Of a stretch of 64,000 nucleotides of DNA, positions 35,560 through 49,094 are shown in pieces. Location of the stretch: positions 3,726-67,725 of the forward strand of contig QHUL01000052.1 in assembly GCA_003222115.1 (NCBI GenBank). The letters are read 5' to 3'. Position 1 is the stretch's first letter; each line of letters opens with the position of its first letter. The stretch is from Gemmatimonadota bacterium (lineage in GTDB: Bacteria > Gemmatimonadota > Gemmatimonadetes > Gemmatimonadales > GWC2-71-9). The notes under the pieces are model-generated. The model worked only from the letters and a program-made list of their open reading frames with translations. It was not told the DNA's origin and ran no database searches. The position numbers were made by a program, and so were the translations under genes.

Positions 35560-36501
35560 ATGCCCGCGCCCGAGTATCTCGATCCCCGTCTCACCGAGCA
35601 CCGTAATCCGCGAACCGAGCGCATCGACGTCGCCTCGCCGCTCGAGATCGTGGATCTCATCAACGGCGAAGACGCCACGGTGGCGGCGGCCGTGCACCGG
35701 GAACGCGAAGCGGTCGCCCGCGCGATCGAGCTCACCGTAGCGGCCTTCCAGGGGGGCGGACGCCTCGTCTACGTCGGCGCGGGGACCTCCGGGCGCCTCG
35801 GCGTGCTCGACGCCAGCGAATGTCCCCCGACCTTCGGGACGCCCCCGGAGCTGGTCGTCGGCGTCATTGCGGGCGGCCTCCCGGCGCTCGTGAAGAGCCA
35901 GGAGGGCGCGGAGGACGACGTCAACGCCGGCGCCGCGGCGATGGACCGCGAGCGGGTGGAGCCGCGGGACTTCGTCCTGGGCATCGCGGCGAGCGGTACC
36001 ACGCCATTCGTGCGCGCGGCGCTGTCCCGCGCACAGACGCTCGGCGCCGTGACGGGCCTCGTGTCCTGCTCCGACCCTCCGAAGCTGCTGGCCGGCAGCT
36101 GCGACGTGGTGATCCTTCCAAAGGTGGGGCCCGAGGTGCTGACGGGGTCCACCCGCATGAAGGCGGCCACCGCCACCAAGCTCGTGCTGAACACCATCAC
36201 CACCGGCGCCATGATCCGCATGGGGCGCGCTTACGGCAACCTGATGGTCGACCTGATGGCCTGGAGCGACAAGCTGCGCGACCGGGGCGAGCGCATCGTG
36301 ATGGAGTGCTGCGAGGTGGACCGCGAGGCCGCGCGGGCCGCGATCGAGGCTGCGGGAGGCTCGGCCAAGCTCGCGATCGTGATGGTGAGAAAAGGCATCG
36401 CGAAAGCCGAGGCGGAACGCTTGCTGCAGCAGGCGGGCGGGTTCGTGCGGCGCGCGGTCGGCGACCCTCCGCCCGTGACCCAGGCGCGCGGCCGGCGATG
36501 A
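35560..36501 (+). CDS. murQ: N-acetylmuramic acid 6-phosphate etherase
   Basis: 313 aa. Contains TEHRNPRTERID and GAGTSGRLGVLDASECPPTFG, a SIS domain. Confidence 0.9.
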   Translation: MPAPEYLDPRLTEHRNPRTERIDVASPLEIVDLINGEDATVAAAVHREREAVARAIELTVAAFQGGGRLVYVGAGTSGRLGVLDASECPPTFGTPPELVVGVIAGGLPALVKSQEGAEDDVNAGAAAMDRERVEPRDFVLGIAASGTTPFVRAALSRAQTLGAVTGLVSCSDPPKLLAGSCDVVILPKVGPEVLTGSTRMKAATATKLVLNTITTGAMIRMGRAYGNLMVDLMAWSDKLRDRGERIVMECCEVDREAARAAIEAAGGSAKLAIVMVRKGIAKAEAERLLQQAGGFVRRAVGDPPPVTQARGRR

Positions 36502-37628
36502 CGAGCTGCCTCGCCGTGGGGCTGATGTCGGGCACCTCGCTCGACGGCGTCTCGACGGCACTGGTGCGGCTCTCGGACGACCCCCTCGCTGCGCAGCTCG
36601 TCGCGTTCCGCCAGGAGCCGTACACGGCAGCGGAGCGCGGGGCCGTCATCGACGCCATCGCGCGCGGGCGCGCTCACGATCTCTCGATGCTGCATGTCGC
36701 GCTGGGGGAGCGCTTCGCCGGCGCCGTGCTCCAGCTGCTCGCCGGCGCCAGGGTCGCGCCGCGCGATCTTGCCTTCATTGCGTCGCACGGCCAGACGATC
36801 TGGCACGAGCCGGGCCGAGCCACGCTGCAGCTGGGCGACCCGGCAGTGATCGCCGAACGCGTCGGTGTGCGCGTCGTGAGCGACTTCCGCTCGCGCGACG
36901 TCGCGGCGGGCGGGCAGGGCGCGCCCCTCGTGCCGCTCGCGGACGTGATGCTGTTCGGGCATCCCGAGCGCGGGCGACTGCTCCTCAATCTCGGCGGGAT
37001 GGCGAACGTCACCTGGGTGCCGAGGCGCGGCGTGATCGCCGGCGCGGTCGCCTTCGACACGGGGCCCGGCGTCGCCGTGATCGACGCCGTGACGCGGCGC
37101 GTCGACCCCGACGCCCCGTACGACCAGGACGGGGAGCGGGCGCGCCGCGGCCACCCCGACCTGAAGGCGCTGCACCAGCTCCTCACCGACCCGTTCTTCG
37201 ATCAGCCGCCACCCAAGAGCACGGGGCGCGAGCGGTTCGGGATCGAGTTCGCGGACCGGCTGATCGCGCTGGTGCACGGCGCCGGCGGCTCGGCGAATGA
37301 CGCCGTCGCGACCGCGACCGCGCTCACCGCGGAAACGGTCGCGCGCGGCATCGAGCGTTGGACCCCTCCTCCCGCCCCGGCCGGGGGGGACGAGTTGGTG
37401 ATCTCGGGCGGGGGTGCCCGCAACCCGGCCCTGGTCGAGCTGCTCGCGGGACGGGTGCGGCCGCGGCCCGTTGTCCCGTTCGCCCAGCTCTTCTTCGACG
37501 GCGAGGCCAAGGAGGCGCTCGCCTTCGCGTTCCTGGGCTTCCTGACGCTCGCGGGGAAGCCCGGCAACCTCCCCGCCGCGACGGGGGCGCGCGGGCCCCG
37601 CGTGCTCGGTTCCGTCACGCCGGCGTGA
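36498..37628 (+). CDS. anmK: Anhydro-N-acetylmuramic acid kinase
   Basis: This is the last 376 aa of track ORF 35820..37628. ATGA overlap with murQ. Contains GLMSGTSLDGVS, ASHGQTIWH and NLGGMANVT. Confidence 0.9.
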   Translation: MTSCLAVGLMSGTSLDGVSTALVRLSDDPLAAQLVAFRQEPYTAAERGAVIDAIARGRAHDLSMLHVALGERFAGAVLQLLAGARVAPRDLAFIASHGQTIWHEPGRATLQLGDPAVIAERVGVRVVSDFRSRDVAAGGQGAPLVPLADVMLFGHPERGRLLLNLGGMANVTWVPRRGVIAGAVAFDTGPGVAVIDAVTRRVDPDAPYDQDGERARRGHPDLKALHQLLTDPFFDQPPPKSTGRERFGIEFADRLIALVHGAGGSANDAVATATALTAETVARGIERWTPPPAPAGGDELVISGGGARNPALVELLAGRVRPRPVVPFAQLFFDGEAKEALAFAFLGFLTLAGKPGNLPAATGARGPRVLGSVTPA

Positions 37629-39064
37629 CGACGTCGCTCGCCCGGCTCGTGTTCCCCGCCTTGCGCTGGCGCGGCGGCAGCTTCGACCACGAGCGCGCCA
37701 AGATCGACGCCGCCCTCGCGGCCGGCGTCGGCGGCTTCATCATCTTCGGCGGCACCCCGGCCAGCGTCGGCGCGCTCACGCGCGCCCTCCGCCAGGGGGC
37801 CGGCCGGCCGCTCCTCATCGGCGCCGACCTGGAGCGCGGCGTTGCCCAGCAGGTGCCGGGCATGACCGAGCTGCCGCCCGCGGCGGCGCTCGGGTTGCTG
37901 GACGACCTCGAGGCGACGCGGACCGCCGGCATCATTACGGCATCCGAGGCGCGCGCGCTCGGCATCAACTGGGCCTTCGGCCCGGTGTGCGACCTCGACC
38001 TCGAGCCCAAGAACCCGATCATCCAGACCCGGTCGTTCGGCACCGAGCCCCTGCGCGTCGGCGAGCACGCGGCGGCCTGGGTCGAAGGGCTGCAGCAGCA
38101 TGGCGTGCTGGGCTGCGCCAAACACTACCCCGGGCACGGCCGGACGCTGCGAGACTCGCACGAAACGCTGCCCCGGGTGACCACGCCCAGGGCGGAGCTA
38201 CTGGCGGTCGACGGCACGCCCTTCGAGTGCGCGCTCCGCGCCGGTGTGGGCAGCGTGATGAGCGCTTTCGTCGCCTATCCCGACTGGGACCCATCGGGCC
38301 GGGCGGCGAGCTTCTCACCCGTCATCCTGGGTCACCTGCGCGGGGCGCTCGGGTTCGAGGGGTTCGTCGTCACGGACGCCCTCATCATGGCGGGTGCGAC
38401 GGCGCGGGAAGCCGAGCCCTCAGCGACGGTGTCGGCGGTCGCCGCCGGATGCGACGCGCTGCTCTACCCGGAGGACTTCCGCGCCGTGGCGGCGGCGCTC
38501 GACCGAGCGGTGGGGACCGCGATTCCGCAGGCCCGCGCCGACGAGGCGCTGGCCCATGGCGAGCAGGCGGCCGTGCAGTGGGGCGGCGGCGCAGACCAGG
38601 GCGAACCCGACCTCGCCGCCCACGGCGCGTTCGCCGACGGACTGGCGGACCGGGCCCTGTTGGTCCACCGCGCGGATCCTCCGTTGCTCCGCGGACCGCT
38701 CGGCGTGCACGTCGTCGACGACGACGTGGGGGGACCGTACACCGTCGGGCCGCGGGACATCTTCCACCAAACGGTTCGTGAGGCGGGAGTGGCGGTGCGG
38801 ACGGGCCAGGGGGAAACGGGAAGGGGGACGGGTGTGGTGCTCGTCTACGCCGAGCCGCGGTCGTGGAAGGGACGGGCGGATCTGGGCGCCCGCTCGCGCA
38901 GCGCGCTGCGTCGGCTCGTGCCGGGGGCGGCGCTGGTCGTGCTGTTCGCGCACCCGCGGTTGGTGTCCCAGATCCCGGGCGAGGGACCCGTGCTGTGTGC
39001 CTGGCACGGGCAGCCGCTGATGCAGCGGGCGGCGGCGAGATGGATCCTCGGGAGAATCCGGTAA
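37625..39064 (+). CDS. nagZ: Glycoside hydrolase family 3 beta-N-acetylhexosaminidase (NagZ-like)
   Basis: This is the last 479 aa of track ORF 37358..39064. GTGA overlap with anmK. Contains GPVCDLD, NPIIQTRSFG and KHYPGHGRTLRDSH. Confidence 0.8.
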   Translation: MTTSLARLVFPALRWRGGSFDHERAKIDAALAAGVGGFIIFGGTPASVGALTRALRQGAGRPLLIGADLERGVAQQVPGMTELPPAAALGLLDDLEATRTAGIITASEARALGINWAFGPVCDLDLEPKNPIIQTRSFGTEPLRVGEHAAAWVEGLQQHGVLGCAKHYPGHGRTLRDSHETLPRVTTPRAELLAVDGTPFECALRAGVGSVMSAFVAYPDWDPSGRAASFSPVILGHLRGALGFEGFVVTDALIMAGATAREAEPSATVSAVAAGCDALLYPEDFRAVAAALDRAVGTAIPQARADEALAHGEQAAVQWGGGADQGEPDLAAHGAFADGLADRALLVHRADPPLLRGPLGVHVVDDDVGGPYTVGPRDIFHQTVREAGVAVRTGQGETGRGTGVVLVYAEPRSWKGRADLGARSRSALRRLVPGAALVVLFAHPRLVSQIPGEGPVLCAWHGQPLMQRAAARWILGRIR

Positions 39065-39142
39065 CAGGCCCGTAAGAAGCCGGAAAGAGGCTGGGGAAGG
39101 GGGAAGGCACCCTTCGCCGGCCTCTCACGGGCCTGTTACCGG
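39058..39142. repeat. G-rich palindromic intergenic element (copy 1), probable bidirectional terminator
   Basis: The outer stem is a 16-bp perfect pairing of CCGGTAACAGGCCCGT with ACGGGCCTGTTACCGG. The interior is GGAAAGAGGCTGGGGAAGGGGGAAGGCACCCTTC. The stop codons of both convergent genes (TAA 39062-64 and TAA complement 39136-38) lie inside the arms. Confidence 0.7.
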
Positions 39143-40566
39143 CCTTTCTTTAAGTACTCCACGACGAAGGCAGCTGGCACTGCGTAGATTATTTTCCCCT
39201 GCGACTCCCGCTCGCCGCCGTACAGCACCGCCACGACCCGTCCCTCGCGGTCGAAGATGGGACTGCCGGAGGAGCCCGGGGCGCCGTAGCCGTCCACCTG
39301 CACGACGTTCGACAGCACCTTGCTCACGGTCCCCACGGTGAGCGTGGGATCGGCGATGGCGCTCTGCCCCTGGCGCTCCATCGGCAGATCCTCGCCCAAC
39401 GGGTAGCCGATGATCGCCACCGGGTCGCCACGCTGCAGGCCACGCGGGTCGGCGGCGAAGCCGAGAACGCGCGGCGTGCCTCCCCGAATGTCGATGCGCA
39501 CCACGCCGATGTCGGCCTCGGCGGACGCGCCGGCGAAGCGCGCCCGGAACCACTGCTTGCTGCCCGAGAACTTCACCGCGATCTCCTGCGGCTGCCGCGT
39601 TCCGTCGTCGCCGGTGAGCACGTGCTTGTTGGTGACGAGGGTGCCGGCCGAGTCCACGGCGAACGCGGTGCCGCTGAAGAGCTCCGTGTCGGACAGCTTG
39701 ACGATGATCAGCGCCACGGCGTCCTGGTTTCTCCGGGAGATCGTGCGATAGTCGACGGCGGCGGCCCCCGCCAGCCCGCGCTGCCGGGCCTCGGCGGCCT
39801 CGAGCTCCTCGCGCAGCCGCGCCACGGTGCCTGCGTCGCCGCGCGAGCCGGCGGTGCCGAGCGCGCCCTTCAGCCGGGAGACCTCGACCTGCGACTGCCG
39901 CAGCGCGTCGCGCAGGCTCTGCAGCTCGGTCTGGAAGCGCGACAGCAGGCGCTGCGCCTCGCGATTGAGGCTGTCGGCGCGGGCCTGGAGGTTCGCTACG
40001 TCGCGCGCATCGCGCGTCGCCTGCCACTGCGTCCACCCGAGCCAGGCGCCCGCGACGAGGAGCAGCCCGATGAGCAGCTTGGTGGTTTGGCGCAGCTGTC
40101 GCGTCTGGCGCGCCACCTCCTGGGCGATGCGGAGAGCGCTGCTCGCGCGGGCAGGGAGCGGGGGGGCCGGTGAGACAGCCTGGAACGGCGCGCGCCCCGC
40201 CGCCATCCGCTCGGCCGAGGCGCGCGCTGCTTCCGGAATCGCCTCGTCCCCCGAGCCGACGATGTGGAACTCCACCGACGGCCCCGTCGGGCCGAACCCG
40301 ATGATGTCCCCGTCGTTCAGCGGAGCGTCGTCGCCCGTGATCTGCCGGCCGTTGAGAAACGTGCCGTTCTTGCTGCCCAGGTCGCGCACGACGAAGCCCT
40401 CGCCGTGCCGGAGGATCGCCGCGTGCCGCGAGGAGACGTCGAGGTCCCGCTCCGCGTCGAACCGCACATCCGACAGGGGGTGGCGGCCCACGCCGATGTA
40501 GGCCTTGCGGAAGAGCTCCACTGCGCCGGCGCGCGCCCCCGACAGGAACTTGAAGCGGGCGTTCAC
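39136..40566 (-). CDS. FHA domain / TM / coiled-coil / trypsin-like (S1-family) serine protease fusion protein
   Basis: 476 aa. N-terminal FHA (IGVGRHPLSDVRF, SSRHAAI, VRDLGSKNGTFLNG). TM helix LLIGLLLVAGAWLGW. Protease triad context VTNKHVL, ADIGVVRI and GAPGSSGSPIF. GTG start overlaps the PP2C stop as GTGA. Confidence 0.8.
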   Translation of the reverse strand: MNARFKFLSGARAGAVELFRKAYIGVGRHPLSDVRFDAERDLDVSSRHAAILRHGEGFVVRDLGSKNGTFLNGRQITGDDAPLNDGDIIGFGPTGPSVEFHIVGSGDEAIPEAARASAERMAAGRAPFQAVSPAPPLPARASSALRIAQEVARQTRQLRQTTKLLIGLLLVAGAWLGWTQWQATRDARDVANLQARADSLNREAQRLLSRFQTELQSLRDALRQSQVEVSRLKGALGTAGSRGDAGTVARLREELEAAEARQRGLAGAAAVDYRTISRRNQDAVALIIVKLSDTELFSGTAFAVDSAGTLVTNKHVLTGDDGTRQPQEIAVKFSGSKQWFRARFAGASAEADIGVVRIDIRGGTPRVLGFAADPRGLQRGDPVAIIGYPLGEDLPMERQGQSAIADPTLTVGTVSKVLSNVVQVDGYGAPGSSGSPIFDREGRVVAVLYGGERESQGKIIYAVPAAFVVEYLKKGR

Positions 40567-41594
40567 GGACTCCGGGAGACGAGGTAGACGGCTGCGGCGA
40601 CGAGAGCCGCCGCGACGACCGCCGCCGCGACCATGCGCCAGCGCACTTGTCGGTTCGGCACGGGGGGTGGGCTCCCGCGGTACACGGGGACGGGCTCCGT
40701 GCTCGTTTCTGTGTCGATGAGCGGGTACAGCTGGTGTCCCACTTCGTCGTCCCGCCCCGCGGGTCGCAACCCCTCCCCGTCGAACCGCGCGATGATGACG
40801 GTGATGTTGTCGGGGCCACCGCGCTCGTTGGCGAGCGCGATGAGCTTGTCGCAGGCGGCCTGCAGGTCCCGCTCGGCGCTCACGATCTCGGCGATCTCCT
40901 CCTTCTTCACCTGGCCGGAGAGACCGTCGGAGCAGAGGGCGAGCGCGTCGCCGCGCCGGATCTCTTGATGCGTCAAGTCCACCTTCACCTTGGCGTCCGG
41001 TCCGAGCGCCTGGAGGATGATGTTCCGCCGCTCGCTCTGCGCCGCCTCCTCCTCGGTCAGCTCGCCCGCCTCCACGAGACGCTGCATCAGCGACTGGTCC
41101 TTCGTGAGCTGGTAAGCCCGGCCCCCGCGGATCAGGTAGGCCCGGCTATCACCGACCTGCGCGAGGTAGACATGGTCGCCCAGCACCCCTACCGCGGTCG
41201 TGGTCGTGCCCATGCCGCGCACCTCGGGATGCGCCTTGGCGTGCGCGTGGATGCGGCTGTTGGCGACCTCCACGGCCTCCTTGAGGCGATAGGCGAAGCG
41301 TTGCGGAGTGACCTCCCGCTCGCCACCCCAAGCCCGCACGAGCTGGGAGTAGATCGTCTCCGTCGCCATCTCGCTCGCCAGCTCGCCGGCCGCAGCCCCG
41401 CCCATCCCGTCCGCCACGACGAAGACCGTGCCGTGGGGCCCGACCACGTGGTCCCGCACGCTGGGCTGCAGGGACGCCTCCTCGCGCGTGAGGTCCGCGA
41501 CGAGGAAGCAGTCCTCATTATGGTCACGAGTCTTCCCGAGGTCGGTTTTCCCGAAGACCTCGATGCGGACGGGCTTGGGCGCGCGTCGGAACAT
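40563..41594 (-). CDS. PP2C-family Ser/Thr protein phosphatase with a C-terminal membrane anchor
   Basis: 343 aa. Contains GKTRDHNEDCF, VADGMGGAAAGELAS and GGPDNITVI. C-terminal TM helix MVAAAVVAAALVAAAVYLV. Confidence 0.9.
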   Translation of the reverse strand: MFRRAPKPVRIEVFGKTDLGKTRDHNEDCFLVADLTREEASLQPSVRDHVVGPHGTVFVVADGMGGAAAGELASEMATETIYSQLVRAWGGEREVTPQRFAYRLKEAVEVANSRIHAHAKAHPEVRGMGTTTTAVGVLGDHVYLAQVGDSRAYLIRGGRAYQLTKDQSLMQRLVEAGELTEEEAAQSERRNIILQALGPDAKVKVDLTHQEIRRGDALALCSDGLSGQVKKEEIAEIVSAERDLQAACDKLIALANERGGPDNITVIIARFDGEGLRPAGRDDEVGHQLYPLIDTETSTEPVPVYRGSPPPVPNRQVRWRMVAAAVVAAALVAAAVYLVSRSP

Positions 41595-41598
41595 CGGC

Positions 41599-43128
41599 CT
41601 AGGGCTGACTCACAGTCTGCACGATCTGGCGGCACGAGCTCAAGGTGGCATCGAGCGCCAGGCCCTGGTTTGCCCACCTGAGCGCGAGCGTGTTGTCGTG
41701 CTTGCTGCTGTAGGCCTGAGCGACCAGGCACGCCGCGAACGCGCGGTCCTTCTGGCCCACGCCGGCCGCATTGTAGACCAGCTGTGCCGAGTCGAGGATC
41801 ACCGCCGGCGGCCGGTCGATCAGCGCGTCGAGGATGACACCCGCCTTCGTGGGATCGATCGCCGTCCTGTGGGCCCCGATGCGCGCGGCCCCCGTCTCGC
41901 GCCGGGATGGCCCGCTTGCCGTGCGGGCGCCGCCGGTGTCCGCACGCCGGCTCGCCGTATCGGCCCGGACGCTCGGGGCCACCTGGCGCGTCCCCTTGCC
42001 ACCTCCCCCAAACACGGCCACCGCGGCCCCGCCGCCCCCCAATACCACCACCGCCCCGATGACCGCCGGCGTGAGCGAGCGCCGCTTGACCCCCTTGGTC
42101 GCGACCCGGTCCAGCAGCTGGGTCTTCTCGTCGCCGTCGGCGCGCGTGGCCGGGATGGGGGCCCCCGCGCCGGCGCCGCGCCCGAGCCCGAGGACCGCCC
42201 CGGCGTCCGCCGCGAACTTCGCCGCCGACTGGTAGCGGTCCACCGGGCTGCGCGCCAGCGCCGCGTCGAGCGTCTCCTGCAGGCCGGTGGGGAATTGCAG
42301 ATCGGGCCGCGCCGCGGCGAGTTTCACGGGCTCGTCCGTGAGCCGTTTGATCATCGTCTCCTGGACCGTGGTCGCCTCGAAGGGCAGCTTGCCGGTGAGC
42401 GTCTTGAACAGCACGAGCGCCAGCGAATAGAGGTCGCTGCGGCCGTCCAGCTTGTCGCCCGACAGCTGCTCGGGGCTCATGAACTCCGGGGTCCCGACGA
42501 CGAGCCCCGTTTTCGTGACCTTCTGACTGTCGTCCCCCCCCACGGCCTTGGCGATTCCGAAGTCCACGACCTTCACCACGTCCGACCCTTCTCGGCCGCG
42601 GCTGATCATGATGTTGTCGGGCTTCAGGTCACGGTGCACGATGCCGAGGTCGTGCGCGGCCTGCAGGGCGTCGGCCACCTGGAGAAAGATGTGCCCCGCC
42701 CGGTGCGCCGGGAGCGCCCCCTCGCGCGCGAGCACATCGGTGAGCGGCTCGCCCTCGATGAACTCCATCGCGAGGTAGATCGTCCCGTCGGGCGTTTCGC
42801 CGAAGTCGTAGATCGCGCACACGTTGGGGTGGGTGATGCGGCTCGCGTTCGCGGCCTCGCGGTTGAAGCGCGCCACGGCGTCGGGGTCGTGCACCATGGA
42901 CGGGTTCATGACCTTGATGGCGCTGCGCCGCCCCATCTTCACGTGCTCGGCGAGATACACCTGTCCCATCCCGCCTTCCCCCAGCTTCTTGAGCACGTGG
43001 TAGCGGTCCGCCACCACCTGGCCGACGAGGTCGGCGGTCGGCGCCGCCGCCCGCAGCGTCTGCCCGTCGTTGGCGCAGAACTTGACGTCGTCGGGATACT
43101 CGGTGGAGCAGACGGGGCAGATCTTCAC
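41599..43128 (-). CDS. Hanks-type Ser/Thr protein kinase with an N-terminal zinc-ribbon-like motif, one TM helix and an extracytoplasmic C-domain
   Basis: This is the C-terminal 509 aa of track ORF 41599..43890. GTG at 43128 overlaps the upstream stop. Contains VKICPVCSTEYPDDVKFCANDG, then GEGGMGQVY, AIKVM, HRDLKPDNIM, DFGIAK and GTPEFMSPE. Confidence 0.9.
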   Translation of the reverse strand: MKICPVCSTEYPDDVKFCANDGQTLRAAAPTADLVGQVVADRYHVLKKLGEGGMGQVYLAEHVKMGRRSAIKVMNPSMVHDPDAVARFNREAANASRITHPNVCAIYDFGETPDGTIYLAMEFIEGEPLTDVLAREGALPAHRAGHIFLQVADALQAAHDLGIVHRDLKPDNIMISRGREGSDVVKVVDFGIAKAVGGDDSQKVTKTGLVVGTPEFMSPEQLSGDKLDGRSDLYSLALVLFKTLTGKLPFEATTVQETMIKRLTDEPVKLAAARPDLQFPTGLQETLDAALARSPVDRYQSAAKFAADAGAVLGLGRGAGAGAPIPATRADGDEKTQLLDRVATKGVKRRSLTPAVIGAVVVLGGGGAAVAVFGGGGKGTRQVAPSVRADTASRRADTGGARTASGPSRRETGAARIGAHRTAIDPTKAGVILDALIDRPPAVILDSAQLVYNAAGVGQKDRAFAACLVAQAYSSKHDNTLALRWANQGLALDATLSSCRQIVQTVSQP

Positions 43129-44171
43129 GCGGGAATCTCGATGCGCAGCAGTTTGTCGCCCACCAGGATGCGCGAGTTGTGCTGCAGCGAGATGTCGCCG
43201 CGGGCGGCGAGGGCGATGCCGTTGCGGCTGCCGGCGTCCACGACGACGAAATCCGCGTCCTCGGAGCGGACCAGCGCGTGCTCCGCGCTCATCGAGGGAT
43301 CGTACGGAAAGACCCACTCGCCGCGCTCCCGGCCGACGCGGATGTCGCGCCCCGGTGACAGCTGCACGACGTCCCGGACGCTGCCGTCGGAGCGCAGCTG
43401 CGTCAGGCTCGCGATGTCGGCGCTGGGCGTCAGGCTTCCCATGCGGCGCGTGGCGTCGGCGTCGGGCGCGTGCGGGCCGGGGTATCCGAGCCGGCGGAAG
43501 CGGATCACCTGTGCGCCGATCAGCAGCAGGTCCCCGTCGGCGAGCCGATGCGGCGCCTCGACAAACACCCACGTGCCGTTGCGGCTGCCCAGGTCGCGCA
43601 CCACCAGGTGGTCCTGCTCCCACGAGAGCTTCGCGTGCAGCGGCGACATGAAGGGGTCGTCGGGGAAGCGGATGTCGCCGTCCTGCCGGCCGATCGTGGT
43701 GTCGAGGGTCTTGCGGTCGAAGCGCTGCACCACGTTTCCCACTTCGTCGAGGAGCACCAACGTGATGGCGAGGTTCGTGCGCGTGGTCGGCGGGGCGGAG
43801 GCGCGGAAGGGGAGGAATTGCGCCAGCGGCGCGCCGCACACGGCGCAGAAGCGCGTGCCCGCGGCGACGGGAGAGGCGCAGCGCCCGCACGCCGGCCCCG
43901 AGCCCGGAGCCGTCAGCCGGCGCCCGCAGTGCGGGCAGAACGGCAGTGCGGCGCTGACCTTGGCGTTGCAGAATGGGCAGGCGGCTTCGCCCTTCAGGGG
44001 GGCCGTGGCAGGCGTCGCCACCTCACGTGTGCCGGGGACCGCCGACGCGCGCGCCGGCGGCGCCACTGCGGCCGCCGCTTTCGCGCCGCCGGACTTGTCC
44101 AGGGATTTGCCGCAGTCCATGCAGAACTGCGCGCCGGCCTCGTTGTCGCGGCCGCAATAGGCGCAGGTCAC
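43125..44171 (-). CDS. Triple zinc-ribbon, double FHA-domain protein
   Basis: 348 aa with a GTG start. Three CxxC-N10-12-CxxC ribbons (CAYCG..CMDCG, CPFCN..CPHCG, CGRCA..CAVCG). Two FHA cores (TIGRQ..SPLHAKL..VRDLGSRNGT and VGRER..SAEHALV..VVDAGSRNG). Confidence 0.8.
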   Translation of the reverse strand: MTCAYCGRDNEAGAQFCMDCGKSLDKSGGAKAAAAVAPPARASAVPGTREVATPATAPLKGEAACPFCNAKVSAALPFCPHCGRRLTAPGSGPACGRCASPVAAGTRFCAVCGAPLAQFLPFRASAPPTTRTNLAITLVLLDEVGNVVQRFDRKTLDTTIGRQDGDIRFPDDPFMSPLHAKLSWEQDHLVVRDLGSRNGTWVFVEAPHRLADGDLLLIGAQVIRFRRLGYPGPHAPDADATRRMGSLTPSADIASLTQLRSDGSVRDVVQLSPGRDIRVGRERGEWVFPYDPSMSAEHALVRSEDADFVVVDAGSRNGIALAARGDISLQHNSRILVGDKLLRIEIPA

Positions 44172-44198
44172 TCGGTTCGATACTCCAGGGAGCCCACA

Positions 44199-44226
44199 AG
44201 TTTAGGCTTGCCAATCTATTCCGCAA
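44199..44226 (-). promoter_or_regulatory. Promoter-like TTGCGG-N16-TAAACT (minus strand) for the FHA/kinase operon
   Basis: Read from the reverse complement. The -10-like box ends about 27 nt upstream of the GTG at 44171. It sits back-to-back with the plus-strand site at 44228. Confidence 0.35.
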
Positions 44227-44227
44227 A

Positions 44228-44257
44228 TTGGCGGGTCGAAAGGGTCGATGCTAGCTT
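44228..44257 (+). promoter_or_regulatory. Promoter-like TTGGCG-N18-TAGCTT for the outer-membrane protein gene
   Basis: Read directly from the sequence. Same -10 hexamer as at the trpS and purA sites. Confidence 0.35.
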
Positions 44258-44354
44258 CGGCGCCTGTGCCAGCGAACCGCGCAGTGCCGTGATCGTCGTT
44301 GCACAACGCCATGACGCCACGTTCCACGCGGTCCGCCGCACGAGTTCGTGCGAC

Positions 44355-47141
44355 GTGGCGTCGTGGTGTCGGGTGACGCTGCTCGCGCTGTCGCTCCTCG
44401 CCGGCCGGGCCGAAGCCCAGGTCGATCCGTCCGGTCCCTGGCGCACGCTCCATACGGAGCATTTTCGGATCCACTTTCGCCCCGCGTACCGCGCGGTCGC
44501 CGAGCAGGAAGCGCGCGAAGCGGAGCGGGCCTATCGTCTGCTCGCGGCAGAGCTCCGGGCGCCGCGCGGCGTCGTCGACCTCGTGCTGGGCGACGATGTC
44601 GACGTCGCCAACGGGGCCACGACGGTGTTCCCCTCGAGCCGCATCTATGTCATGCTGCCGCCGCCCCTCGGCGACCCCGGGCTGCAGCGGTTCGACAGCT
44701 GGCTCCGCCTGGTCACGGTGCACGAGCTGACGCACGTCTTCCACCTGGACCGGGTGCGCGGCGTGTGGGGGGTGCTGCAGCGGGTGTTCGGGCGCGCGCC
44801 GGGGCTCTTCCCGAACGCGTTCCAGCCGAGCTGGGTCATCGAAGGCCTGGCGACCTACTACGAGTCCAAGTTCACGAACGGCGGGCGCGTGCGGGGCAGC
44901 TTCCATACGCAGCTCCTCGCGGCCGACCGCGCGGGCGACGCGTCCCGCTCCCCGACCAACGCGCTGCTCTTCACCCGCTGGGCGGACGGGCCGGTGCCGT
45001 ACGCCTACGGCAGCCGCTTCTTTCATTATCTGGCCGGTGCGGCGGGGGACTCCGTCGTTCCCCGGTTCGTCGAGGCGACCGCGAGGCAGCTGATCCCGTT
45101 CCGCGTGGGACGCCAGCTGGGACGGGCCGCGCCGGGGCGCGAGCTCCGCGAAGACTGGGCGCGGGCCACTCGGCCCGAGCTGCCGGCCGGTACGCCGGGC
45201 GACGTGCTCGCCCAGGATCTGTGGAGCGAGCCGGCGCCGCAGCTGTCTCCGGACGGCGGCCGAGTAGCGTACCAGCGCGACGACGGCAAGGAAGCGCGGC
45301 AGCTCGTCGTCGTGGACGTGCGGGACTGGCGGGTGCTGCGGCACCACCGCGTCAACGCCGGCGCGAGTTACGACTGGCTGGGCGACACGCTGGTGGTGGC
45401 GCAGCTCGATTGGACGTCGCGCTGGCGCCTGCGCAGCGATCTGTATCGCTGGCTTCCCGATGGCGGGTGGCGGCGGGACACGCGCGGGGCGCGGCTGGTG
45501 CGGCCGCGCGCCGGCGGCGCCCGCCTCGCCGCGATCCGCTTCACGCCCGCGGCGGCTGAGCCCACCCTCCCCGCGCCCACGGAGCCGGGGGCCGTGTGGG
45601 GGGACGTGGCGCCGTCACCCGACGGCCGGTGGGTCGCGGCGACGCGCCACGCGCAGGGTCATTGGGCGCTGGTGCGCTGGCCCGCCGACTCGCCTCAGGC
45701 GGCGACCGTGCTGCTGACCGCCACGGGCGTGATCGTCGATCCCGTCTGGAGCGGGGACGGCGGGCTGCTGTTCGTGGGGGAGCAGACCGGCTTCCCGCAG
45801 GTGTACCGCTGGAGCGATTCGGTCGGGGCGGTGCAGCTCACGCGCGAGCCGCTGGGTGCGCGCGCGCCGGCGCTGCTGCCCGACGGCAGCCTGCTCTACA
45901 CGACGCTGTCCACCCACGGCTGGCGGCTGTCGCGGGGCCGGCCCGCCGCGACGGCGGTCGTGCCCGCGCCGGCCGACGTGCCCGCGCCGTTCGACTCCGC
46001 GCCGCCGGTGACGGCCTTCGAGAGCGGGTACACCGCGTGGCCGTCCCTGCGACCGCGCTTCTGGCTGCCGTATGGCGTCAACGCGGGTCCGGCCGGGCAC
46101 TTCTTCGGCGGGGTGACCGCCGGGAGGGACGCCGTGGGCCGAGACACCTATGCGGCGGAGCTCCTCGTCTCGCCCTCTCCCCTGCGTGCGGGGGGCGCGT
46201 TCGCCGCTCTTACGGCGCGGCTCGGCAATCCGACGCTCGATGCATCCTTCGACTCCGAGTGGTCGCTCGCCGTGTGGCTCCCCGGCGATACCAGCGTCGC
46301 CGAGCGGGATCAGAACGCGGCCCTGGGCGCGACCTTCGTGATGCGCCGCTTCCGCACGGCCGCCAGCCTCCGGGTCGCCGCGGAATACGAGGGCAACCGC
46401 TTCGTGGTGCTGCCACCGGGCACGCCACTCGCGGCCGCGTGCGGCACGTGCCAGGTCCGCGATCTCGTCGGCGGATCGCTGTCGCTCGGCCTGGCGCACT
46501 TCGTGACGGCGCCACTCGCGATCTCACGGCAGGATGGGTTCGCGTGGACCGTCACCTACCGGCGGCGGGAGCAGCAGGGCACCGCCCGCTGGTCCAACGA
46601 GCTGCGCACGCGGCTGGCGCTGTACGCCCGCGTTCCCGGCCCCGGCGGCTTCGCGCACCACGTGCTCGCCGTGCGCCTCGCGGCCGGGGCGACCGGCGGG
46701 CCGCTCGCCGATCTGCTCAAGGTCGGCGGTGTGTCGCAGGGCGTGCTGAGTCTGGGCTTCACCGGGCCGCTCGGCGGCTCGCGCAGCTTCCCGGTGCGCG
46801 GCTACCGCGGGAACGCGCTGCTGGGGCGGCGCGCCGCCACGGCGAGCGTCGAGTACCGCGTCCCGCTCGCCCTCGTCGGCGAGTCGCTCGGACATCTCCC
46901 CTTCGGCGCCGACAAGTTGTGGCTCGCGCTGTTCGGCGACGCGGGCGACGCTTGGAACCCGGGCGTGGCGCCCCGCCTCGGTCGGCTCCGCTCGGCCGGA
47001 GTCGAGCTCGTCGCTGACCTGACCGTCAGCTACGACGTTCCGCTGGAGGTCCGGCTCGGCGTCGCGCAACCCCTCGCGACGCCTCCGTCCGGTGACGCGC
47101 GCCGTCCGCGCGTCTATCTCGCCCTCGCCGCGGACTTCTGA
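44355..47141 (+). CDS. Large outer-membrane protein: HExxH metalloprotease-like N-domain, TolB/PD40-like beta-propeller and C-terminal beta-barrel
   Basis: This is the in-frame tail of track ORF 43470..47141. Signal-like VASWCRVTLLALSLLAGRAEA-Q, with an alternative GTG at 44289. Contains HELTHVFH. PD40-like repeats SPDGGRVAYQRDD and SPDGRWVAATRH. Alternating-hydrophobic C-terminus ends in YLALAADF, with a terminal Phe. Confidence 0.65.
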   Translation: MASWCRVTLLALSLLAGRAEAQVDPSGPWRTLHTEHFRIHFRPAYRAVAEQEAREAERAYRLLAAELRAPRGVVDLVLGDDVDVANGATTVFPSSRIYVMLPPPLGDPGLQRFDSWLRLVTVHELTHVFHLDRVRGVWGVLQRVFGRAPGLFPNAFQPSWVIEGLATYYESKFTNGGRVRGSFHTQLLAADRAGDASRSPTNALLFTRWADGPVPYAYGSRFFHYLAGAAGDSVVPRFVEATARQLIPFRVGRQLGRAAPGRELREDWARATRPELPAGTPGDVLAQDLWSEPAPQLSPDGGRVAYQRDDGKEARQLVVVDVRDWRVLRHHRVNAGASYDWLGDTLVVAQLDWTSRWRLRSDLYRWLPDGGWRRDTRGARLVRPRAGGARLAAIRFTPAAAEPTLPAPTEPGAVWGDVAPSPDGRWVAATRHAQGHWALVRWPADSPQAATVLLTATGVIVDPVWSGDGGLLFVGEQTGFPQVYRWSDSVGAVQLTREPLGARAPALLPDGSLLYTTLSTHGWRLSRGRPAATAVVPAPADVPAPFDSAPPVTAFESGYTAWPSLRPRFWLPYGVNAGPAGHFFGGVTAGRDAVGRDTYAAELLVSPSPLRAGGAFAALTARLGNPTLDASFDSEWSLAVWLPGDTSVAERDQNAALGATFVMRRFRTAASLRVAAEYEGNRFVVLPPGTPLAAACGTCQVRDLVGGSLSLGLAHFVTAPLAISRQDGFAWTVTYRRREQQGTARWSNELRTRLALYARVPGPGGFAHHVLAVRLAAGATGGPLADLLKVGGVSQGVLSLGFTGPLGGSRSFPVRGYRGNALLGRRAATASVEYRVPLALVGESLGHLPFGADKLWLALFGDAGDAWNPGVAPRLGRLRSAGVELVADLTVSYDVPLEVRLGVAQPLATPPSGDARRPRVYLALAADF

Positions 47142-47228: not shown

Positions 47229-49094
47229 ATGTATTGCTCTCGCTGCGGGACCCAGAACGAGAACGCCAGCAAATTCTGCCGCTCCTGCGGCTTGGACCTG
47301 ACCGCCACGACACCCGTCGGCGCGGTGAAGGACCCGCAGCAGGAGATGACGGACCTTGAGCTGGTTCGGGAGCAGCTCAAGGAGGAGTACGAGATCCTAG
47401 AGGAGTTGGGCCGGGGGGGGATGGCGATCGTCTTCAGGGCCCGCGAGCGCCAACTCGAGCGCGACGTCGCGATCAAAGTCCTGCCGTTTTCTCTCTCCTT
47501 CGATAAAGAATTCGTCGAGCGCTTCCAGCGGGAAGCGCGCACCTCCGCCAAGCTGGAGCACCCGAACATCATCCCGATCTATCGCGTCGGAAAATCGGGC
47601 CGGGTGATCTTCTTCGTCATGAAGTTCCTGCGCGGCAAGCCGCTGTCATCGGTGCTCGCCGCGCGGGGCACGCTGGCGCCGGCGGAGATCCGGCAGGTCC
47701 TGGCCCAGGTCGCGCGCGCCCTCGCCTACGCGCACCGCAGCGGCATCGTCCACCGCGATATCAAGCCCGACAACATCATGTTCGATGAACACGGCCTCGC
47801 CATGGTCACGGACTTCGGCATCGCCAAGGCCGCCACCGGCGGCAAGCTCACGGGCACCGGCATGTCCATCGGCACGCCGCACTACATGAGCCCCGAGCAG
47901 GCCCGGGCCCAGCCGCTCGACGGCCGCAGCGATCTCTACTCCCTGGGCGTGGTGGCGTACCAGTGCCTCGCGGGCAGCGTTCCCTTCGACGGCGAGGACT
48001 CGTTCGCGATCGGCTACAAGCACATCATGGAGGAGCTGCCGACCCCGTCGCTCGAGACGCCCGACAAGCGCAGCCTCTTCGACATCATCCGCAAGATGAT
48101 GGCCAAGCTCCCGGACGACCGCTTCCAGGACGCCGACGACCTGGTCCAGGCGCTGGAGGGCGGGGCGTTCGCCCCCTTGGCGCTCGCGACGGCGCCCACG
48201 CGGGCCATTCCCTCCCTCGGGAAGCTCACGGCGGCGCCCACCCCGCTGCCCAAGGCTGGGCGGCCGGTGGCTCCCGGCGAACACCACCGCTCCGTGGCGG
48301 CCGCGGTGTCGATCTGGCTCTTCATTGTCCTGTCGCTCGCCGGGGGCGGGGGCTTCTACGCGTACAAAAAGGGGTGGCTCCTCGCCACGCCCGGGCCCGC
48401 CACGGGCGCGCGGGACTCGACGGCGCGCGACACCAGCGCCGCCGCCGACAGCGCAGGCCGGGCCGACACGAGCGGCGCGCTCGCCAGCGCCACCGGTGGC
48501 GGGACGGGGCACGACACGTCCCGCTCCCATCAGCCGCCACCCTCTCCGGGCACCCCCGCGCGCCTGACGCTCCAGGGCGTACCGCAGGGCGCGCGCGTCA
48601 CGCTGAACGGCCAGCCGGTGCGAGGGCCCCAGGTCGACGTCCCGCCCGGGGTCTACAAGCTCGCGGTGCGCGCGGGGGGCTATCAGCCCTACGAGCGGCA
48701 GGTGGTCGTGCCTCCGGGAGCGCCGCTCACCGTGCGGGTCGAGCTCCAGGCGATGGTCGAAGACGCCGAGAGCGGCGGGGGGCCGTGCGACGCCTACGGA
48801 CCGGCCTACAATCAGGACAAGATCTGCTTCGATACCCGGCCCATCCCGCTCCAGCCGGCGCTCGTCCCGGTCCCCGGCGACGCGCCCGTCTTTCCCCGGC
48901 CGGCCATCCTCCTGTTCCACGTGTCGCGCAACGGCGAGACGCAAGAAGTGCGGGTGTTCGTGCGCTCCAACGTGGAGACGTTCAACGATCAGGCACTCGA
49001 CCTCGCGAAGAACCTGCGGTGGAACCCGGCGCTCAAGAACGGCGAGCCCGTGGACGCCTGGGTGCAGTACCCCGTGAACCCCACGAGGCAGTAA
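47229..49094 (+). CDS. Hanks-type Ser/Thr protein kinase: zinc-ribbon, kinase, TM, PEGA and TonB-C-terminal-like domains
   Basis: 621 aa. MYCSRCGTQNENASKFCRSCG, then GRGGMAIVF, AIKVL, HRDIKPDNIM, DFGIAK and GTPHYMSPE. TM helix AAVSIWLFIVLSLAGGGGFYAY. PEGA-like LTLQGVPQGARVTLNGQPV..GVYKLAVRAGGYQPYE. TonB_C-like LLFHVSRNGETQEVRVFVRSNVETFNDQALDLAKNLRWNPALKNGEPVDAWVQYPV. Confidence 0.85.
   Translation: MYCSRCGTQNENASKFCRSCGLDLTATTPVGAVKDPQQEMTDLELVREQLKEEYEILEELGRGGMAIVFRARERQLERDVAIKVLPFSLSFDKEFVERFQREARTSAKLEHPNIIPIYRVGKSGRVIFFVMKFLRGKPLSSVLAARGTLAPAEIRQVLAQVARALAYAHRSGIVHRDIKPDNIMFDEHGLAMVTDFGIAKAATGGKLTGTGMSIGTPHYMSPEQARAQPLDGRSDLYSLGVVAYQCLAGSVPFDGEDSFAIGYKHIMEELPTPSLETPDKRSLFDIIRKMMAKLPDDRFQDADDLVQALEGGAFAPLALATAPTRAIPSLGKLTAAPTPLPKAGRPVAPGEHHRSVAAAVSIWLFIVLSLAGGGGFYAYKKGWLLATPGPATGARDSTARDTSAAADSAGRADTSGALASATGGGTGHDTSRSHQPPPSPGTPARLTLQGVPQGARVTLNGQPVRGPQVDVPPGVYKLAVRAGGYQPYERQVVVPPGAPLTVRVELQAMVEDAESGGGPCDAYGPAYNQDKICFDTRPIPLQPALVPVPGDAPVFPRPAILLFHVSRNGETQEVRVFVRSNVETFNDQALDLAKNLRWNPALKNGEPVDAWVQYPVNPTRQ

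Follow-up and report, generated by a model that had tools for sequence, protein, structure and literature searches.

A 64,000-nucleotide stretch from a bacterium of the Gemmatimonadales (Gemmatimonadota; GenBank assembly GCA_003222115.1, contig QHUL01000052.1, positions 3,726 to 67,725; hereafter, the window) carries four chained genes on its minus strand at positions 39136-44171, in the order A, B, C, D. They encode a soluble protein with three zinc ribbons and two FHA domains (A), a receptor-type Hanks Ser/Thr kinase (B), a PP2C (PPM) phosphatase with a C-terminal membrane anchor (C), and a bitopic protein in which an FHA domain, a membrane helix, and a stalk are followed by an HtrA/DegS-like serine protease (D). 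We interpret the set as a co-translated, membrane-associated Ser/Thr phospho-signalling operon in which FHA docking controls a protease that works on the cell envelope from the periplasm, and we give this reading a probability of about 0.55. The four-gene operon itself is confirmed as real: its arrangement was found again in 89 related loci, and thus is recurrent rather than a product of chance.

Bacterial modules of kinase, PP2C phosphatase, and FHA protein are well known, but what they bring about is nearly always a binding event in the cytoplasm. A phosphothreonine reader joined to an active-looking periplasmic protease would instead provide a direct route from cytoplasmic phosphorylation to proteolysis outside the membrane. 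Within the library searched, full-text queries turned up neither an FHA/membrane helix/protease protein nor such an operon, and an earlier, sequence-only reading of the window could likewise name no described system of this composition. Gemmatimonadota are an abundant but barely studied soil phylum, and the operon gives a concrete entry point for experiments on their envelope management.

Protein D (476 aa; 39136..40566, on the minus strand, as are all features of the operon given below) carries the central evidence. Its FHA domain (40261-40566; Pfam FHA, E = 1.2e-17, 64.5 bits against a cutoff of 20.7) is predicted to be cytoplasmic and is separated from the protease domain (39139-39717, aa 284-476; Trypsin_2, E = 2.3e-21, 77.5 bits) by a hydrophobic segment, the membrane helix (40021-40077, aa 164-182). 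Among 42 homologues, the phosphothreonine-binding positions G27, H48, N67, and G68 of the FHA domain are invariant, with conservation of at least 90% at R28 and S45; in the protease, H315 and G431-x-S433-G434-S435 are invariant and D352 is conserved in at least 90%. The AlphaFold model built from these homologues (mean predicted local distance difference test score [pLDDT], 86) places the FHA domain at residues 1-102, a disordered linker at 122-150, and a single continuous helix of 95 residues at 148-242 that includes the membrane segment. Two more helices follow, and then a double-barrel protease domain at 284-475. A hydrophobic segment occurs at the same position in 110 of 110 full-length representatives of the D family (median 17-residue hydropathy, 2.52), and lysine and arginine residues are more frequent on its N-terminal flank than on the other side (3.3 versus 2.5). 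Because the N-terminal flank is the richer in positive charge, the sequences fit a topology with the FHA domain in the cytoplasm and the protease in the periplasm, which we predict to be the likely one. The architecture proposed earlier for D (FHA, membrane helix, and trypsin-like protease, with a periplasmic protease as output) therefore held up in the Pfam matches, in the helix present throughout the family, and in the structure model.

In fold, the protease of D is HtrA-like. Foldseek returned DegS, HtrA1, and DegP as its best matches (E about 1e-14; target-normalised template-modelling score [TM-score] about 0.8), and D shares with these proteins the S1 chymotrypsin fold and the His-Asp-Ser triad. 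Like DegS and MarP (Rv3671c), it would be tethered to the inner membrane. Unlike HtrA-family members, D has no PDZ domain, as no Pfam match to one was found and the chain ends at the protease domain, and its N-terminus is an FHA domain rather than a signal anchor. Scores against the NCBIfam models for HtrA, DegP, and DegS were only 16-47 bits, with cutoffs of 408-470 (e.g., 47 versus 450 and 41 versus 416). The model for mycobacterial MarP (NF033740) gave 43.3 bits versus a cutoff of 250, and D has an FHA domain and a single helix where MarP has a four-helix membrane domain. D is thus HtrA-like in fold and not a member of the HtrA, DegS, or MarP families.

Two other architectures resemble that of D. 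A 2008 protease survey lists an FHA-FHA-trypsin protein of Bacteroides thetaiotaomicron (NP_811686), its architecture given without function or gene context (PMC2605481); its FHA domains are likewise N-terminal to a trypsin-like protease, and it has two of them versus one in D. The YscD/PrgH inner-membrane ring proteins of type III secretion systems (T3SS) share the topology of D, with an FHA-like domain in the cytoplasm joined through one membrane helix to a domain in the periplasm, and D matches Pfam Yop-YscD_cpl (E = 7.2e-10; 39.4 bits, cutoff 33.2). The periplasmic part of D, however, is an enzyme and not a set of ring-building domains, and no T3SS genes lie nearby.

The writer and eraser of the proposed pathway are encoded immediately upstream of D. 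Kinase B (509 aa from the GTG at 43128; 41599..43128) has a kinase domain at about 42199-43002 (Pfam Pkinase, E = 1.4e-49; 169 bits, cutoff 31.7), which identifies it as a Hanks-type enzyme. Its catalytic motifs are complete (GEGGMG at 50, AIK with K72, HRDLK at 165, DFG at 189, and SPE at 218), so the kinase looks active. Its sole hydrophobic segment (42010-42066, aa 355-373; score 2.28) is the membrane helix, and the extracytoplasmic part beyond it comprises a low-complexity linker of ∼50 aa and a conserved, predicted helical domain of ∼85 aa (41602-41871, aa about 420-509). This domain is common to orthologues of the peptidoglycan (PG) type and of the type VI secretion type (see below), and it is all-helical in a single-sequence AlphaFold prediction with a pLDDT of only 67. 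The sequence-only reading was right about the Hanks kinase, the single helix, and the two extracytoplasmic cysteines, but the extracytoplasmic part spans 136 rather than ∼100 aa and the cysteines are only partly conserved. Similarly, the N-terminal motif that it described as ribbon-like (43054-43128) is kept in orthologues as CPxCG-x9-FCPxDG, but consists of three cysteines and an aspartate (C4, C7, C18, and D21) and falls below the Pfam zinc-ribbon cutoff (17.4 versus 25 bits).

Phosphatase C (343 aa; 40563..41594) has its catalytic PP2C domain at about 40782-41549 (Pfam PP2C_2, E = 8.8e-17) with the motifs RDHNED, ADGMGG, SDGL, and GGPDN, and at 244.5 bits it exceeds the cutoff of 230 for the NCBIfam Stp1_PP2C_phos model (NF033484), which places it among Stp1/IreP-type phosphatases. 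A hydrophobic tail (40578-40634, aa 321-339; score 2.61) provides the membrane anchor that had been proposed for it.

Protein A (348 aa; 43125..44171) begins with three CxxC...CxxC sets (12 cysteines; 43836-44171, aa 1-112), matched by DZR (E = 2.3e-15; 56.9 bits, cutoff 27.3), which identifies a double zinc ribbon, and by Zn_Ribbon_1 in three stretches (48.2 bits, cutoff 25). Pfam FHA matches two further stretches, FHA1 at about 43497-43724 and FHA2 at about 43137-43343 (E = 1.9e-21; 76.7 bits, cutoff 20.7), so that Pfam recognises all three FHA domains of A and D; both domains of A carry the GR, SxxH, and NG motifs of phosphothreonine binding. No hydrophobic segment was found in A. The earlier calls of FHA, ribbon, kinase, PP2C, and trypsin domains were thus confirmed by Pfam or NCBIfam, and A is indeed soluble, with two FHA domains behind its three ribbons. 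Although present in the window, these ribbons are lineage-restricted: orthologues in loci L094 and L103 have them and those in L096, L101, and L102 do not. The constant core of A is the FHA pair. A zinc ribbon combined with FHA is also the architecture of FraH of Anabaena, and among the matches of A to solved structures is ArnA of Sulfolobus (PDB 5a8i), a weak similarity limited to the FHA region (E = 0.00017). A differs from both in having three ribbons and two FHA domains, and in the absence of ribbons from many of its orthologues.

The four genes are tightly coupled, and the coordinates and junctions given for them by the sequence-only reading were correct. The stop codon of A overlaps the GTG start of B (GCGTGAAG; a GTGA overlap), B and C are separated by a 4-nt gap (TAG GCCG ATG), and the TGA stop of C overlaps the GTG start of D in a second GTGA overlap. 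Long antisense open reading frames lie opposite A-D, as is typical of high-GC DNA (the window has a G+C content of ∼71%). GC at the third codon position is 0.90-0.93 in A-D and 0.54-0.80 in these antisense frames, which identifies the minus strand as the coding strand.

A search of 1.84 billion representatives recovered at least 306 clusters of D-family proteins at 50% identity (E ≤1e-30), most of them full-length matches with 35-45% identity. All named relatives belong to Gemmatimonadales, Gemmatimonadaceae, or Gemmatimonadota, and none of them is named from another phylum. The loci examined comprised seven from genomes and 80 from metagenomes in which D is at least 55% identical to that of the window, together with five distant loci with a D of ∼40% identity; the metagenome scan, which was seeded with a 9-sequence D alignment, reached only close relatives (at least 62% identity). 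Six further matches from the genome-contig scan, for which D alone was the query (L008-L013), were set aside as unrelated HtrA or FHA proteins, leaving only the seven as true relatives. Where the flanks are long enough to judge, C precedes D in 84 of 84 loci, B is in place in 60 of 61, and A in 53 of 53. The order is also kept in the distant, Gemmatimonadaceae-type loci (L094, L096, and L101-L103), so the four genes stay side by side in related genomes even where D has diverged to ∼40% identity. Based on these sequences, the operon appears to be part of the Gemmatimonadota core genome. The window is a housekeeping region that encodes ribosomal proteins, SecY, tRNA synthetases, PriA, ribonucleotide reductase (RNR), and pyruvate kinase.

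We infer the following course of events, which extends to the substrates of the kinase, the ligands of the FHA domains, the effect of FHA binding on the protease, the proteins that the protease cleaves, and the order of the steps. B, as a single-pass receptor kinase, and the tail-anchored C would together determine how far threonines are phosphorylated on the cytoplasmic side of the membrane. The phosphothreonines would be read by the FHA domain of D and by A, a soluble tandem-FHA scaffold that bears ribbons in this lineage. D would cross the membrane once and present its PDZ-less HtrA/DegS-like protease on a long periplasmic helical stalk, and FHA docking could recruit, cluster, or re-orient D, so that periplasmic proteolysis is switched from the inside out. 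The targets would likely be cell-envelope proteins, most plausibly peptidoglycan-remodelling factors.

Several observations weigh against this reading, and one of them concerns B. In soil-metagenome strains we found four independent internal deletions of B (in L077/L078, in L082, in L031, and in L021/L023/L024), in genomes that are 97-99% identical at the nucleotide level to strains with an intact B. Three of the deletions were measured at 1386, 642, and 1260 bp (462, 214, and 420 codons), and L082 represents the fourth junction. All four are in frame and retain the start and stop codons of B, and hence its coupling to C and D; the junctions show 2-aa microhomology. A, C, and D are intact in the same strains. 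B is therefore dispensable in some wild strains and cannot be the sole or obligatory writer. A linear pathway is further complicated by a candidate FHA ligand within D itself, the juxtamembrane threonine of T155-x-x-L158 on the cytoplasmic side. This motif is 65% conserved, and we treat it as a weak lead to a docking site, as it sits in a predicted helix, which is atypical for an FHA ligand. The stalk of D, a candidate for coiled-coil oligomerisation, shows a modest signal of hydrophobic periodicity.

The surrounding peptidoglycan genes also say less about function than their positions might suggest. In relatives, nagZ-anmK-murQ is downstream of and convergent with the operon (nagZ adjoins it in 56 of 69 loci, and in 57 of 61 the distance to anmK is at most 3.6 kb), and its orientation means that it is not co-transcribed with A-D. 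Most relatives additionally have a divergent gene for a 650-aa Amidase_3 protein (N-acetylmuramoyl-L-alanine amidase) between the PD40 gene and A (e.g., L002 4389-6344). No Amidase_3 gene occurs anywhere in the 64-kb window, and it is also absent at the operon in the closest relatives (L015, L016, and L019-L023). GGT and DsbD, for which no link to the operon is apparent, are equally syntenic across the phylum, and for this reason we regard the peptidoglycan-gene neighbourhood as suggestive only.

The natural B deletions are ready-made loss-of-function alleles that can be compared with nearly identical intact strains. A second receptor kinase is encoded in the window at 47229-49094 (plus strand); an N-terminal zinc ribbon with four cysteines precedes its kinase domain, which is followed by a membrane helix and by PEGA and TonB_C domains. 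This kinase is kept near the operon in L001, L090, L092, and L096 and could be a candidate for an alternative writer where B is deleted.

Survival without B is also what would be expected if information flowed from the outside in, with the protease domain of D as the sensor, much as misfolded envelope proteins activate DegS, and the stalk acting on the FHA domain to recruit or release kinase, phosphatase, or A. The structural proximity of the protease to DegS and other HtrA-family stress sensors agrees with this direction, as do the continuous helix that joins the periplasmic and cytoplasmic parts of D and the small periplasmic domain of B, which lacks a recognisable ligand-binding fold. On the other hand, the PDZ domain that D lacks is the very element by which DegS senses, FHA domains read phosphorylation and are not known to act as transmitters, and nothing in the operon, such as a DNA-binding domain or an anti-sigma factor, could serve as an output in the cytoplasm. 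We therefore consider signalling in this direction unlikely.

The inside-out reading draws a parallel with the threonine phosphorylation pathway of type VI secretion systems (T6SS), to which the operon is related. According to a review (PMC13584744), the minimal T6SS threonine phosphorylation pathway comprises a kinase, a phosphatase, and an FHA protein. As in that pathway (PpkA/TagE, PppA/TagG, and Fha1/TagH), a membrane Hanks kinase, a PP2C phosphatase, and an FHA reader are encoded together in the window. In five Gemmatimonadota-like loci (L095, L097, L098, L099, and L100; e.g., L095 1-12049 and L097 1-14452), we found genes for kinase, PP2C, and FHA-protease placed in that order directly after tssK, tssL (DotU), tssM (IcmF), and a lipoprotein of 154-177 aa, often followed by CsgG-like genes. 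The D homologues concerned are P0219, P0287, P0280, P0273, and P0272. The lipoprotein has no Pfam match, and a weak PrcB-like NCBIfam match (E = 0.0017; cutoff 125 bits) is a lead only. The PP2Cs of these loci are 50-55% identical to C of the window, and the kinase domain of B is 39-59% identical to their kinases versus 35% to the second kinase of the window.

Because the block recurs after tssK-tssL-tssM with closely related kinases and phosphatases, we conclude that the trio of B, C, and D was duplicated as a block and forms an evolutionary unit, with D in the position of the Fha reader. In the T6SS loci the trio stands in place of the PpkA/PppA/Fha pathway, and these embedded paralogues make the operon a relative of T6SS threonine phosphorylation, not an unrelated system. 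They also point to a form of post-translational T6SS control that has not been described so far. The earlier statement that no T6SS or divisome genes are nearby is accurate for the 64-kb window, where none were found, but has to be read alongside these close paralogues, which do lie inside T6SS loci.

The paralogy raises the question of whether the window operon, as a threonine phosphorylation pathway that has become detached, acts in trans on a T6SS encoded elsewhere in the genome, with D as a Fha/TagH equivalent that clears or processes components or obstacles in the periplasm where the apparatus assembles. The same three activities as in the minimal pathway and the five embedded trios speak for such a role. 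The window type, however, is separate and much more widely sampled; it has its own gene A, with tandem FHA domains and zinc ribbons, a fixed housekeeping location, and a PP2C that is membrane-anchored, whereas the T6SS-linked PP2Cs are soluble. The T6SS-linked copies of D fall in another part of a neighbour-joining tree, apart from the window clade, with the reservation that branches are long and rooting is uncertain. The reader in the window is fused to a periplasmic protease and is not a soluble TagH, and neither D nor A comes close to the TagH model (TIGR03354; 29.9 and 31.9 bits, cutoff 120). With no T6SS gene in the 64 kb around the operon, we find control of a T6SS in trans improbable.

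The second likeness is to the actinobacterial cell-wall cluster, fhaA-fhaB(fipA)-pstP-rodA-pbpA-pknA-pknB. It too has two FHA proteins, a membrane-anchored PP2C, and one or more receptor kinases in a core operon beside peptidoglycan genes. One of the loci set aside above (L010) is a classic cluster of this type, with an FHA protein, a PP2C with a membrane helix, and FtsW/RodA. The window operon differs in that it lacks RodA and penicillin-binding protein genes (no SEDS or PBP gene), in that one of its FHA proteins bears a periplasmic protease, and in that the sensor of its kinase is a small helical domain instead of PASTA repeats. Scores of A and D against the actinobacterial FhaB model (NF049868) were 53.1 and 41.4 bits, well below the cutoff of 125. 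By analogy, the operon would work like the T6SS pathway and the FhaA/FhaB/PstP/PknAB module; it is an undescribed variant of the known bacterial kinase/FHA signalling modules.

We also weighed a role in defence against phages or in conflict between bacteria, with the kinase sensing infection and the protease as effector. PADLOC models for the PD-T4-6 and mad6 (MADS) kinases match B with E values down to 1e-91, the protease domain of D matches RT-Protease_XI (E = 2.3e-15), and the B gene is polymorphic for deletions within populations. These matches, however, are confined to the generic kinase and trypsin domains, and none was obtained for A. The operon holds a fixed, syntenic housekeeping location throughout the phylum, its distribution is not patchy, and no mobile-element genes were found near it. 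A periplasmic protease would, moreover, be away from phage targets in the cytoplasm. Taken together, a role in defence is very improbable.

Two of the T6SS loci encode a further protein, beside the CsgG-like genes, in which an FHA domain and a membrane helix are followed by an SLT lytic transglycosylase. Judged by its sequence, this FHA-SLT protein would be a second case of a cytoplasmic FHA domain tethered to a periplasmic hydrolase. As a tentative extension, which we think possible but doubtful, FHA/membrane helix/periplasmic hydrolase proteins such as D and FHA-SLT could represent an unrecognised class of effectors through which kinases and phosphatases switch enzymes across the membrane, one copy in Gemmatimonadota serving as a core regulator of envelope and peptidoglycan and another as a gate for T6SS insertion through the cell wall. 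D-family proteins have a conserved juxtamembrane motif, S-T-x-x-R-[IV]...E-V-A-R-Q-T-R-x-L-R, ahead of the membrane helix (aa 142-159; about 40090-40143 in the window), and FHA-SLT proteins have a similar TR[LM]IRAAY motif in the corresponding place. The motif may be a common phospho-acceptor or docking element.

At the downstream end of the operon, a GC-rich hairpin (39060..39140, minus strand) begins at the stop codon of D and separates D from nagZ, which converges on it. This near-perfect, 81-nt structure had a predicted RNA folding energy of -65.8 kcal/mol for a 106-nt stretch (z-score, -7.3), and none of 200 shuffled sequences folded equally well. It has no U-tract, and terminator-like matches were at background level. 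It probably marks the end of the operon transcript, and it may act as a bidirectional terminator. Beyond it, on the plus strand at 35560-39064, the window encodes murQ-anmK-nagZ, a complete cytoplasmic peptidoglycan-recycling set whose genes overlap or abut and which is syntenic across Gemmatimonadota.

Upstream of A, an intergenic region (44172..44354) is shared with a divergent PD40/TolB-like gene and, by position, is presumed to be the promoter region of the operon; a search for the sigma-70 consensus upstream of A gave no match, and the promoter was not located. The divergent gene (44355-47141, plus strand) encodes a secreted protein of 928 aa with an HExxH motif (VHELTHVFH), PD40/TolB-like propeller repeats, and a weakly Omp85/BamA-like C-terminus, and it is kept upstream of the operon across the phylum.

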